DNA of 56,692 nt from Rhabdochlamydiaceae bacterium (GCA_027365315.1 DAHXNQ010000091.1:1-56692); one strand, 5' to 3'; shown: positions 28,366 to 31,932, counted from the first letter of the stretch. Numbers and translations are program-made. The notes: generated by a model from the letters alone, not told the origin.

Positions 28366-28517
28366 CTGGCCATGTCTAGCGCCATACTACCTTTATCAGG
28401 CGGAGCCTCTATGGCTTCGCGTCCTTCGTCTACTCCGCTGCACTGGCTTGCCAGGGCGGCAGCGAAGATCTATTTTGTGGCGCACGCAGCGCTAGCGCTG
28501 CTGCTCTCTTTTGTCAC
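28366..28517 (+). repeat. Near-identical 152-nt 5' segment shared by the tandem paralogs (copy 1)
   Basis: Aligned by eye to 30325..30476 at a constant offset of 1959 nt, with only about 3 mismatches. Downstream identity drops sharply. Confidence 0.85.
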
Positions 28518-30240
28518 CGCTGGAAAGAGCTGGAATGCGGCCAAGGCACTCTGGAGAGAGGGAGGGGATTCCTCGGTCGATAGTGCTACCTGGCTCAAGT
28601 TTGCCCATCAGATCTGGAGCGCCGCACCTGGGTTCACGCCGGGACAGGGGCCAGCTGCACCTAGAACAGACGGCAACCCCAGAAGCAATCCTGGCGACCC
28701 ACCAGCTCCACCGCAAGAGGCCAAGATTCTACCACCCAAATTTTCCTACGGCGCCTACACCATCTGGCCCTGGGGAGAGGGGGATCAGAAGCTCTCTGTC
28801 TATCTCGAATCGATGCAGGAGGCGGAAGAGATCTGCGCTAGCGCCCAGCAGCTACACTCTCTCGGCGTTCTTCGCGAGGAGATTACCAATCTGAGCGATA
28901 GTACCCTGAAGAGTTTCAGCAGCAATATTGCCTTCGTGAAGCTGCTGCTTGAAAAGCCGCTGCCCTGGAAGGAGGTGAAGGATCTCAAGTACTGGGTCGA
29001 TTCCGATATCGAGGCAGGGACGCGCAATCTCGATCAGGTGCGCCTGCTTTTCGACAACCATGTCTCATTTGAGACCGTGAAGAATCTGATTCGCTCTCCA
29101 CACAAAATCGACTTTCTGCGCCAGCTGCAGCTAGCTGGATATGAAAACGCTCTTCTGACCAGTCCCAGCACGCTACAGCTGCTCAACTGCTGCTCCTCTT
29201 GCGAGGGGGTCAAGGAAAAGCTGGACGAGCAGATCGCGCGCGCACCCAACCCGGCAGGACCCACTGCTACGCCATCGCAGTCTACAGCACCCCAGAGTGG
29301 TCAGGGGAGTGGTCAGCGTGAGCAGCCAGCACCTTCGGCTTCTCAAATAGGCGGTCTCAGTCGAGATCAGCTGCAGCAGCGGCTGCGTGAAAAAAATAGC
29401 CCCGCAGCGCCTGCGCAGTCACCCGCTGCGCCCAAACAGCCCGCTTCGTCGACGCCCCCGCCCCAAGCTACTTCCAAGCCAGCACAGCCCGCACCTGCAG
29501 CTACTCCGGCACCCTCTTTGGGGGAGGCTAAAATCGTGAAGGAGAAGGATATTTTTGGTAAATACACCATCTGGCCCTGGGGAGATAGGGGAGAGAAGTT
29601 GCTGCAGAATGATAAGACGCTGCTATGCCGGATTACAGATGATGAGGAGGCGGAGAAGCTCTGCGGCTATGCGCAGGGGCTGCATAGACTTGGAGTCGCG
29701 CAGAAACTGATCGCGCAGCTGAGCAAAGAGCAGCTAAAGCATCTAGGTCTGAATTTGATCCCGTTCAATAGTCTGAAGGAGCTGGGCTGGCCTTTGGAAG
29801 CCGCTCCCCCTGAGGGTAGGATCTATGTTTCCGGTGGTATAGGCCTGCTCGATCTCACGGGGCCGCAGCTTACACGTTTGGGAACCACCTGTTTGAGCGA
29901 GGTCTCGGCTCTCTGGAAGCTGGTTCAAGTTGAGAATGGCTTTATGGACTTGATTCAGTTAAGAGAGGCGCGCATCAGAGAGCTTGCTGCTGACCTACCA
30001 CGTCTTACGCGTCTCGCAAGAGATCCCCATCGTTTTCCACTGGACGATCTTTTCAGCCTAGCACCTGTGCAGCTAGAGCGCCTGGAGGTCAGGGCGGAGC
30101 AGGTCGGTGCCATACTGAAAAAGAGCACATGCGGCCTGCAGATGATATTCATATTGATGCAGAGTAATGATACGCTGAGAGCATTTGGAATCGAGAACGC
30201 AGACCTTGCGACCCTACGCTGGGTCTACGAAGGTCGATGA
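28372..30240 (+). CDS. 'IWPWG'-repeat protein, paralog 1 (orphan family)
   Basis: The N-terminus is shared with paralog 2 (MSSAILPLSGGASMASRPSSTPLHWLARAAAKIYFVAHAALALLLSFV). Two Y.IWPWG modules start near nt 28762 and 29569, separated by a Pro/Ala/Gln-rich linker. An alternative ATG at 28360 exists. Confidence 0.6.
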   Translation: MSSAILPLSGGASMASRPSSTPLHWLARAAAKIYFVAHAALALLLSFVTAGKSWNAAKALWREGGDSSVDSATWLKFAHQIWSAAPGFTPGQGPAAPRTDGNPRSNPGDPPAPPQEAKILPPKFSYGAYTIWPWGEGDQKLSVYLESMQEAEEICASAQQLHSLGVLREEITNLSDSTLKSFSSNIAFVKLLLEKPLPWKEVKDLKYWVDSDIEAGTRNLDQVRLLFDNHVSFETVKNLIRSPHKIDFLRQLQLAGYENALLTSPSTLQLLNCCSSCEGVKEKLDEQIARAPNPAGPTATPSQSTAPQSGQGSGQREQPAPSASQIGGLSRDQLQQRLREKNSPAAPAQSPAAPKQPASSTPPPQATSKPAQPAPAATPAPSLGEAKIVKEKDIFGKYTIWPWGDRGEKLLQNDKTLLCRITDDEEAEKLCGYAQGLHRLGVAQKLIAQLSKEQLKHLGLNLIPFNSLKELGWPLEAAPPEGRIYVSGGIGLLDLTGPQLTRLGTTCLSEVSALWKLVQVENGFMDLIQLREARIRELAADLPRLTRLARDPHRFPLDDLFSLAPVQLERLEVRAEQVGAILKKSTCGLQMIFILMQSNDTLRAFGIENADLATLRWVYEGR

Positions 30241-30324
30241 TATCGCCATCGTATAAATTAAAAAATTCAACATACTATATAAGTTCTTTATCTTTTGTTG
30301 GTGCTAGGCTATACTGCTATACTC

Positions 30325-30476
30325 CTGGCCATGTCTAGCGCCATACTACCTTTATCAGGCGGAGCCTCTATGGCTTCGCGTCCTTCGTCTACTCCGCTGC
30401 ACTGGCTTGCCAGGGCGGCAGCGAAGATCTATTTTGTGGCGCACGCTGCGCTAGCGCTGCTGCTATCCTTTGTCAC
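30325..30476 (+). repeat. Near-identical 152-nt 5' segment shared by the tandem paralogs (copy 2)
   Basis: See copy 1 (28366..28517). Confidence 0.85.
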
Positions 30477-31932
30477 GAAAGGTGAGGGCTGGAAGGCGGC
30501 CAAGGAGCTCTGGAAAGAGGGCGGGGATTCCTCGGTGGACGCCCCTACCTGGATCAAGCTTGCCCACCGGATCTGGAGCGCGTCGCCCACGCCAGGGCAG
30601 GGGACAGCTGCGCCATCCAGCACTCCTGGGAGCGACCCTAGCAGGTTGTCCTCGAAAGATTCCAAGATCGAACCGCCCTCCTATGGACAATCTGGCATCT
30701 ACGCCATCTGGCCATGGGGGAGAGGGGATCAGAAACTCTCTTACTCTCTTAACTCTATGCAAGAGGCGGAAGAGCTCTGTAGCTATGCCGAGAAGTTAGA
30801 ATCGTGCGGGCTCTCTCGGCAAGAGATTGGCCAGATTCACGACAAGGATGAGTTGAAGAAATTTGGCGCAAACGAAGTTTTTGTGAAGCTTTTCCTCGAT
30901 CACCATCTCTTGTGGAGTGATCTGAAGCGGAGCTCTATTTTCTCCCCCGATTCCAAGAAGGCGCTCGAGTTAACCACCGATCAGGTGCGCTTGCTGCTTC
31001 AGAAGAAAGTCTCCTTTGACACGGTGGAGAAGTTGCTGAAGTTTCCATTTGGAATTGTCTATCTGCCCCAGCTACAGAAGGACAGATTTGATGACGCACT
31101 TTTGGCCAGTCCCGAGACACTACAACTTCTTATCGATACTAATCCTCTCGGCAAGTACGAGGACAACTACGAAGAGATAAAGAACGAACTAAAGAAGAGA
31201 CTAGAGGACAGGAGTGTCCCCCTACCACAAGATGGGCGCGAAATCAATCGCATCGGCATCGGGTACGAGGGGTACGAGATCTGGCCCTGGGGAACAGCGG
31301 AAGGGAAGAAGCTGCTGCGGTCATCGGGATCGGGATCGCTGAAGAGAGCCGATCAGCTCTGCACCTATGCGCGCGAGCTCGAAGCCATAGGAGTGCCGCG
31401 AAATACGATCTGTGATCTGACAGAGTCGCAGTTAGAGAGCTTTAGCCGCCATGCGAAGAAGCTTGACGCCCTGATGAAGTTGGGTCTGCCTTTTGAAGAT
31501 AAATCCTCGGCGGATGCCAGGTTAAGCTCTCTGATCAGACTATCGGAAGAGCAGCTGCGGCTACTAGGCGAGACCTGTCTCACGGAGGTGCAGGCCTTGG
31601 TAGGGGGGCTTGGCCGGGAAGGGTTTTTCCGGTTGGCTAGGCTGTCACAGGATGGACTGGTATGGGGCGCGAAGAATCTAGCTCGACTGCAAGCCCTCAA
31701 AGGAGAGCCTGGACGTTTCAGCAATGCCGATCTGTATGGTCTCTCGCCTCCTCAGTTCGAGTGTCTCGAGTCCCGCGCAGCAGAGGTGAGGAAGATGTTG
31801 GGAGAGACCACTCTCTCATGGGTGAGGTACACTCTACTTTCTTCAGACCCGTCTGTGCAGGAAGCTATGGCCGCTAAGAAAGGTATCACGCCCGATGGCT
31901 TAAAGATTCTCGATTGGGTGATCTGGGGTTAG
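30331..31932 (+). CDS. 'IWPWG'-repeat protein, paralog 2 (orphan family)
   Basis: It has the same N-terminal 50 aa as paralog 1 and two Y.IWPWG modules near nt 30706 and 31279. The track's TTG start at 30295 is less likely than the shared ATG at 30331. Confidence 0.6.
   Translation: MSSAILPLSGGASMASRPSSTPLHWLARAAAKIYFVAHAALALLLSFVTKGEGWKAAKELWKEGGDSSVDAPTWIKLAHRIWSASPTPGQGTAAPSSTPGSDPSRLSSKDSKIEPPSYGQSGIYAIWPWGRGDQKLSYSLNSMQEAEELCSYAEKLESCGLSRQEIGQIHDKDELKKFGANEVFVKLFLDHHLLWSDLKRSSIFSPDSKKALELTTDQVRLLLQKKVSFDTVEKLLKFPFGIVYLPQLQKDRFDDALLASPETLQLLIDTNPLGKYEDNYEEIKNELKKRLEDRSVPLPQDGREINRIGIGYEGYEIWPWGTAEGKKLLRSSGSGSLKRADQLCTYARELEAIGVPRNTICDLTESQLESFSRHAKKLDALMKLGLPFEDKSSADARLSSLIRLSEEQLRLLGETCLTEVQALVGGLGREGFFRLARLSQDGLVWGAKNLARLQALKGEPGRFSNADLYGLSPPQFECLESRAAEVRKMLGETTLSWVRYTLLSSDPSVQEAMAAKKGITPDGLKILDWVIWG

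Follow-up and report, generated by a model that had tools for sequence, protein, structure and literature searches.

The window, the whole 56,692-nucleotide (nt) stretch of a Rhabdochlamydiaceae metagenome contig (GCA_027365315.1, DAHXNQ010000091.1:1-56692), encodes two long plus-strand open reading frames (ORFs) between 28.3 and 32.0 kb, here called gene A (ORF 28360..30240) and gene B (ORF 30295..31932). A and B are tandem paralogs within a lineage-specific insertion in the dcw cluster. Their 5' ends are nearly identical, their bodies have diverged, and each body holds two copies of a module that opens with the motif Y.IWPWG. The reading that we favor, and consider reasonably probable, is that these constrained genes had their 5' end recently homogenized by gene conversion and that this end serves as a shared targeting cassette on envelope or exported proteins.

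A homogenized 5' block and graded divergence

The sequence-only reading of this DNA had put the differences between 28366..28517 and 30325..30476 at about three, and alignment of the 5' regions gives exactly three mismatches (A/T, C/A and T/C). In a codon-anchored alignment, counted from the ATG, the first mismatch falls at nt 117, followed by 135, 138 and 147-150. The longest identical run is 116 nt; the longest in 10,000 shuffles of the match/mismatch columns was 33, and none of the 10,000 reached 116. The first 49 amino acids (aa) of A and B are identical (MSSAIL...SFVT), which bears out the shared N-terminus claimed earlier.

The identity extends beyond the coding sequence. Homology begins 22 nt upstream of the ATG, at TGCTAGGCTAT (28350 in A, 30303 in B), and the AT-rich regions further upstream are unrelated to each other. 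The copy in A (28350..28517, plus strand; repeat families D1 and D5) thus comprises the 22 nt leader and codons 1-49, with a GGAG box at 28401-28404 and a second in-frame ATG at 28411. The copy in B (30303..30476, plus strand) carries an 8-nt tandem duplication, GCTATACT, at 30308-30323, as well as the GGAG box and the second ATG at 30370. By BLASTN and the repeat finder the block stretches to 266 nt at 90% identity, and the direct repeats lie 1959 nt apart.

Downstream of the block the genes separate by degrees. Nucleotide identity in successive 25-codon blocks is 100, 91, 80 and 77%, then about 50%, apart from a local rise to 72% where the first IWPWG site lies. Synonymous (dS) and nonsynonymous (dN) divergence, estimated by segment with the Nei-Gojobori method, follow the same course. 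Codons 1-49 have a dS of 0.10 and a dN of 0, with four differences that are all synonymous. The dS then climbs to 0.65 in codons 50-86, 0.79 in codons 87-127 and 1.16 in module 1, is saturated in linker 2 and reaches 1.56 in module 2. The divergence of A and B is therefore graded from 5' to 3' and not two-state, and the uniform divergence that would have spoken against a converted segment is absent, since dS rises from 0.10 to more than 1.1 along the genes.

The dS of codons 1-49 is far lower than that of codons 50-622 (0.10 against 1.43), the pattern of segmental gene conversion. Selection at the protein level alone cannot explain why the leader is identical and the first ~150 nt show almost no synonymous change. 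The earlier proposal of gene conversion or strong selection on the N-terminus is supported in this form, with the data (dS 0.10, dN 0 and an identical leader) favoring conversion. Its description of the remainder as matching only at the level of motifs was overstated: the proteins are 59% identical over the first 271 aa and 33% identical in the C-terminal modules.

Coding status, start codons and upstream regions

A and B are functional coding genes under constraint and not spurious ORFs, because purifying selection acts on copies that are saturated at synonymous sites: over codons 50-622 (473 codons compared) dN/dS is 0.42 at a dS of about 1.4. Their GC content at third codon positions (GC3), 0.61 in A and 0.64 in B, is host-like when set against the 0.62-0.70 of the genes from murF to murC, which supports them as real genes. 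A second public contig, JGI 3300024473 Ga0257086_100278, is 99.995% identical to the window over 20 kb, the tandem pair included.

Each gene has two candidate starts. The common in-frame ATG (M1) lies at 28372 in A and 30331 in B, so that gene A (28372..30240, plus strand) encodes 622 aa and gene B (30331..31932, plus strand) 533 aa. A second in-frame ATG (M14), at 28411 in A and 30370 in B, has the GGAG box 6 nt before it and is where the public gene calls begin, giving 609 aa for A and 520 aa for B. We count residues from M1 without deciding between the starts; part of the supposed shared N-terminus may be 5' leader RNA.

A and B each have their own AT-rich upstream region. The one 5' of A (28280..28349, plus strand; 25% GC), which is the spacer between A and the preceding ORF X341, is not homologous to the region 5' of B. 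It is presumably gene A's own promoter, and a consensus scan called no sigma-70 site in it.

Y.IWPWG modules

Both proteins are built in the same order: a Ser/Thr/Pro-rich N-terminus, a hydrophobic helix, two Trp-containing helices, a Pro-rich linker, module 1, linker 2 and module 2. In A, module A1 (28726..29199, plus strand) has the motif YTIWPWG, with a beta-hairpin and helices predicted, and module A2 (29533..30237, plus strand), also YTIWPWG, is a long form with a C-terminal helical extension. In B, module B1 (30670..31146, plus strand) reads YAIWPWG and module B2 (31243..31929, plus strand) YEIWPWG, the latter again a long form. The four motif sites (28762/28765, 29569/29572, 30706/30709 and 31279/31282) are those reported from the sequence, and a translation of the window in six frames shows no further occurrence of the motif.

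The four-module alignment has 20 invariant positions. They include Y..IWPWG and then A...C..A..L...G, with one invariant Cys per module. Module 1 of A and module 1 of B are 46-59% identical and the two modules 2 are 33% identical, whereas modules within one protein share 23-29%. Because like-numbered modules pair closer than modules within one protein, the internal module duplication predates the gene duplication.

Linker 2 differs most in length. In A it is a low-complexity stretch of 124 residues rich in Pro, Ala, Gln and Ser (aa 272-395; 29185..29556, plus strand), compared with ~45 residues in B. The library matches of this linker, Ndc1_Nup in Pfam and DnaX in NCBIfam, are purely compositional.

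AlphaFold2 was run on module B1 with the four-module alignment, as the sequence-only reading had advised. The model has a predicted local distance difference test score (pLDDT) of 70 and a predicted template modelling score (pTM) of 0.63; it shows a beta-hairpin formed by Y.IWPWG, followed by about ten short helices. Full-length B was modelled poorly (pLDDT 50).

The motif is also alike at the nucleotide level. The 36 nt that encode Y.IWPWG (28756-28791, 29563-29598, 30700-30735 and 31273-31308; repeat family D2) are 72-86% identical among the four modules, and modules A1 and A2 have an identical 23-nt run despite protein identity below 30%. This likeness may reflect codon bias or micro-conversion between modules.

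Membrane segment and N-terminal region

The proteins encode a single putative signal-anchor or transmembrane segment. Residues 29-51 (AAAKIYFVAHAALALLLSFVT) are the sole stretch of each protein above 1.6 in a Kyte-Doolittle profile, with a 19-residue maximum of 1.9. In A this hydrophobic helix (AAAKIYFVAHAALALLLSFVTAG; 28456..28524, plus strand) peaks at 1.91, and hydropathy places it in B at 30415..30483 (plus strand). AlphaFold2 predicts, with low confidence, a helix at residues 22-48 of B, whose N-terminus is identical in A. The helices that come next, in aa 52-83, are amphipathic.

The flank on the N-terminal side of the hydrophobic helix carries only positive charges (R, R, K) and no acidic residue. 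Ser, Thr and Pro account for 11 of the first 25 residues, acidic residues for none; this value ranks second among 39 ORFs of the window. After the helix the proteins continue as ...LLLSFVTAGKSW and ...SFVTKGEGW. V-T-A|G in A is a possible Sec cleavage site that is not conserved in B, which has VTKG, and neither protein has a lipobox, the region before residue 150 being free of Cys. The charge distribution weakly favors an N-in/C-out signal anchor, in which case the bulk of each protein would be outside the cytoplasm.

Search for relatives

Profile libraries offer no family for the proteins. Pfam, NCBIfam, PADLOC and PHROGs returned nothing above threshold for A, B or the module; the best sub-threshold matches are DUF4351 (E = 0.05, 14 bits against a cut-off of 25), the compositional DnaX and phrog_30907 (E = 0.049). 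A sequence profile search of the PDB had a best E of 0.18, and Foldseek against the PDB and BFVD gave nothing with E <0.05.

Database-wide searches returned the pair alone. With B as query, a word-indexed search of 5.8 billion proteins recovered A and B and nothing else. The same two were the sole matches when 1.84 billion cluster representatives were scanned exhaustively with HMMER, using a profile hidden Markov model built from the four modules. Searches of 82 related loci with A, B, X341 and an N-terminal profile (tblastn and hmmsearch) detected no homologue, and neither the window nor these loci hold a further copy of the module or the N-terminus. Alignment with hhalign to the window orphans X341, orf580 and orf639 gave probabilities of at most 0.4%. 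No paper containing 'IWPWG' or the identifier of the metagenome was found in the literature. The earlier statement that the module matches no known domain thus holds for the libraries tried and for both database-wide searches, and no Pfam family can be assigned to it.

The best Foldseek neighbors, which are not significant and which we do not accept as relatives, are the helical repeats of TALE-like BurrH and of mTERF (4cj9_A; probability 0.47 and 0.44, E 0.06 and 1.5). Like these helical-hairpin repeat proteins, A and B have helices that recurrently start with L(S/T)xxQ(L/V)xxL. However, the TM-scores are 0.14 and 0.40, the period of the module is irregular (8-57 residues instead of 33-35), and the Y.IWPWG hairpin has no counterpart in BurrH or mTERF. 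We treat the modelled resemblance as a lead only and do not rely on it.

Genomic setting

The pair is embedded among cell wall and division genes. Upstream lie murF, mraY, murD, a gene for a LysM protein and ftsW; downstream lie murG, murC and an FtsQ-like ORF. We take murF-mraY-murD-LysM-ftsW-murG-murC to be the chlamydial dcw arrangement. Among FtsW homologues, those with names are annotated as Rhabdochlamydiaceae, Chlamydiia or Chlamydiota, the best being 64% identical. This gene order and these names support the chlamydial host proposed from the sequence and place it in the Chlamydiota. No near relative was found among the GTDB species genomes, where a MurG search gave only a 34% match to Acidimicrobiales.

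Synteny shows X341, A and B to be an insertion of 4.9 kb, specific to this lineage, between ftsW and murG: ftsW is directly followed by murG in ~77 of 80 metagenome loci (FtsW 51-61% identical) and also in L083, the closest relative, which has long synteny with the window. X341 (27254..28279, plus strand) is the third orphan ORF of the insertion; it encodes 341 aa with no hydrophobic segment and has a GC3 of 0.48, compared with 0.62-0.70 in its neighbors. It has no Pfam or NCBIfam match, a database search returned X341 itself alone, and it shows no profile similarity to the modules. The insertion borders have no flanking direct repeats, tRNA or recombinase.

The same junction carries an unrelated 3.3-kb insert in two Chlamydiota metagenome contigs, L006 (2818-6128) and L008. 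This insert holds a 620-aa ORF and, on the minus strand, two ORFs of 215 and 120 aa. The ftsW|murG junction thus tolerates insertions, and the location consequently says little about the function of A and B.

GC content sets the host apart from its relatives. The window is ~56% GC, whereas all 80 related Chlamydiota loci lie at 33-51%. Nothing public is more than 64% identical to the FtsW of the window, and the host seems to belong to a chlamydial lineage that is unusually rich in GC and poorly sampled.

Other parts of the window also differ from L083. The last 238 nt of miaA (ORF 38685-39713), at 39475-39712, recur at 43614-43851 with 96% identity, directly after the stop of an ORF for a 1252-aa autotransporter (39857-43615). 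The autotransporter gene is thus bracketed by a direct repeat, and L083 has no autotransporter after miaA; the arrangement resembles a further insertion specific to this lineage, with either a duplicated target or a recombination scar. A 267-aa orphan ORF (43845-44648, minus strand) overlaps the second copy of the miaA repeat with its 3' end by just 7 nt (43845-43851), and its N-terminus is the most Ser/Thr/Pro-rich acid-free one in the window (MSISSVSPPSAASSTPTPAVSRLAF, 14/25). Between the FtsQ-like gene and khpA, the region 35340-37800 has extra ORFs of 75, 580 and 124 aa relative to L083, with no Pfam match. The 580-aa ORF has a hydrophobic N-terminus (MMHYPCMWLWRLFLPIFLCSLFFAA) and a low GC3 of 0.47.

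Two further features lie elsewhere. A full-length thiamine pyrophosphate (TPP) riboswitch (11594-11711, plus strand, 75 bits) lies immediately 5' of, and overlaps the start of, a major facilitator superfamily (MFS) transporter ORF (11621-12958), which is likely thiamine-regulated. The adjacent ORFs 54615-55529 and 55526-56395 (minus strand) both have weak Asp_protease_2 matches and may be another tandem paralog pair.

Proposed history and alternatives

The history that we propose would begin with duplication of the module within an ancestral gene, followed by duplication of the whole gene. The bodies of A and B would then have diverged to saturation at synonymous sites, while the first ~170 nt, comprising the leader, the translation-initiation region and the N-terminus with the hydrophobic helix, would recently have been re-homogenized by intragenomic gene conversion. 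The 5'-to-3' gradient of dS could stem from conversion tracts that were also anchored at the 5' end but were older or reached further. The shared block would serve as a common cassette for expression and for membrane targeting or export, an interpretation suggested by its content, because it holds the proximal leader, the ribosome-binding region, the N-terminal tail and the only hydrophobic helix. Kept identical by conversion, and perhaps also by selection, it would allow both proteins to be made and delivered alike while their bodies differ. In an obligate intracellular lineage, A and B are most probably envelope-anchored or exported and would face the periplasm or the host.

Known systems resemble the pair in part. 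In Helicobacter pylori, babA/babB (also sabA/sabB and homA/homB) have one gene end kept near-identical within the genome by RecA-dependent conversion, while the specificity part diverges (PMC3960876). A and B are alike in the segmental concerted evolution of paralogs that, in H. pylori, encode exported proteins. The bab genes, however, encode beta-barrel outer-membrane adhesins at distant loci and are concerted mainly at the 3' end, whereas A and B are adjacent direct repeats with a converted 5' end and leader, and their products are helical with an N-terminal anchor. In the Mycoplasma vpma, vsp and vlp loci, the 5' untranslated region (UTR) and signal-peptide region are conserved across clustered genes with non-homologous bodies (PMC2268961). 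A and B likewise share a conserved 5' region (22 nt of leader and 49 codons), but their bodies are still homologous. The Mycoplasma loci encode lipoproteins with an AAKC lipobox and have a single promoter, inverted orientations and an Xer1/Mbr tyrosine recombinase that acts on sites in the 5' UTR. A and B differ from them in having no Cys after the helix, both genes on the plus strand and separate AT-rich upstream regions, and no ORF of at least 200 aa in the window has a recombinase or integrase domain.

The alternatives concern both the cause of the 5' identity and the role of the proteins. Selection on the nucleotide sequence itself could hold the 5' ends together, either through a cis-regulatory RNA in which a hairpin hides the GGAG box and the M14 AUG or through an export signal borne by the mRNA. 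The identity does take in synonymous sites and 22 nt of leader, and an 8-bp hairpin (GCGGAGCC/GGCUUCGC) enclosing the GGAG box and M14 AUG is predicted for A and B alike, as is a separate 5' hairpin whose loop region can accommodate the extra 8 nt of B. The folding z-scores, however, are unremarkable (-2.2 and -1.7; 7 and 11 of 200 shuffles fold as well), the block has no Rfam match, and two near-identical copies permit no covariation test. The graded decay of dS over ~400 nt, moreover, is expected of overlapping conversion tracts and not of a discrete RNA element, and we judge selection on the RNA to be quite improbable. That the pair is an artefact, with spurious or decaying ORFs or a shared 5' end produced by chimeric assembly, is scarcely credible. 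Such an origin would fit a metagenome contig whose two genes have no homologues anywhere searched, but it is contradicted by ORFs of 545-626 aa in a 56% GC genome, by a dN/dS of 0.42 between synonymously saturated copies with host-like GC3, by a motif kept in four modules and by the nearly identical second contig; the 116-nt exact repeat is also shorter than a normal read pair.

A and B could instead be type III-secreted effectors or Inc-like proteins, the constant N-terminus then combining a secretion signal with a membrane-insertion domain. Inc proteins are phylum-specific, often helix-rich and equipped with an N-terminal type III signal (Dehoux et al. 2011, PMC3048545). With such chlamydial substrates A and B share the Chlamydiota host, orphan status, tandem paralogy within one lineage, alpha-helical bodies and a moderately hydrophobic segment within the first 50 residues, near a Ser-rich N-terminus whose Ser/Thr/Pro-rich, acid-free first 25 residues are no more than a compositional hint. 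However, Inc proteins have a bilobal hydrophobic domain of 40-60 residues, whereas A and B each have one helix of ~20-23 residues as their single stretch above 1.6. The window holds no type III secretion genes, and two members do not make an effector family. The secretion-signal effector family put forward from the sequence is therefore not borne out, and the effector or Inc-like role itself is possible but doubtful. A place in the envelope or division machinery, as bitopic periplasmic accessory proteins recruited to the dcw cluster, would suit genes that lie between ftsW and murG on the same strand. Their plan of a short cytoplasmic tail, transmembrane helix, Pro-rich spacer and periplasmic domains recalls FtsN, TolA and TonB: the lone anchor lies near the N-terminus and is preceded by positive charges, and A has a Pro/Ala/Gln-rich spacer. 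The chlamydial envelope is cysteine-cross-linked, and the invariant Cys of each module could form disulfides. Such a role is nevertheless unlikely. No other Chlamydiota dcw cluster examined contains A or B, which puts the two genes outside the conserved machinery; each gene has its own AT-rich upstream region; the junction takes up an unrelated insert in L006 and L008; and A and B have no SPOR, LysM or other peptidoglycan-binding domain in Pfam or NCBIfam.

Several points also weigh against our own preferred account of a converted targeting cassette. With only two near-identical copies, conversion is inseparable from selection on the nucleotide sequence, be it on RNA structure or an mRNA signal. 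Values of dS above 1 are saturated, so that only the contrast with the 5' end is safe, and the intermediate step in dS is marginal (proportion of synonymous differences, pS, 0.46 against 0.63). The start codon of A and B is ambiguous between M1 and M14, and the targeting of both proteins is read from hydropathy and composition alone. The AlphaFold2 models (pLDDT 50 and 70) draw on alignments of 2-4 sequences. The second contig is of the same population as the window, and the two may stem from the same reads, so that their agreement is not fully independent confirmation.

Implications

Lineage-specific orphans and partial conversion between tandem paralogs are both common, and in these respects the pair is ordinary. 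Beyond that, the block would be a clean, quantified case of gene conversion anchored at the 5' end, from the environmental chlamydiae, whose genomes are often thought static. The genes also constitute a two-gene orphan family with a distinctive, searchable motif, Y.IWPWG ... EAEE(I/L)C.YA..L...G, and the ftsW|murG junction stands out as a place where accessory genes have landed repeatedly in Chlamydiota.

A bolder idea, which we consider rather unlikely, is that Y.IWPWG marks a new domain of one deep-branching, high-GC Chlamydiota lineage and that the block is a portable cassette of leader, start and export signal, purposely kept identical so that diverging host-directed proteins have one route of translation control and delivery. 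If true, A and B would represent a minimal two-gene effector system with a constant N-terminus maintained by gene conversion. Should the N-terminus common to A and B prove to be an export signal, both would become new candidates for interaction with the host, and the cassette could help to find further substrates in new genomes of the lineage.

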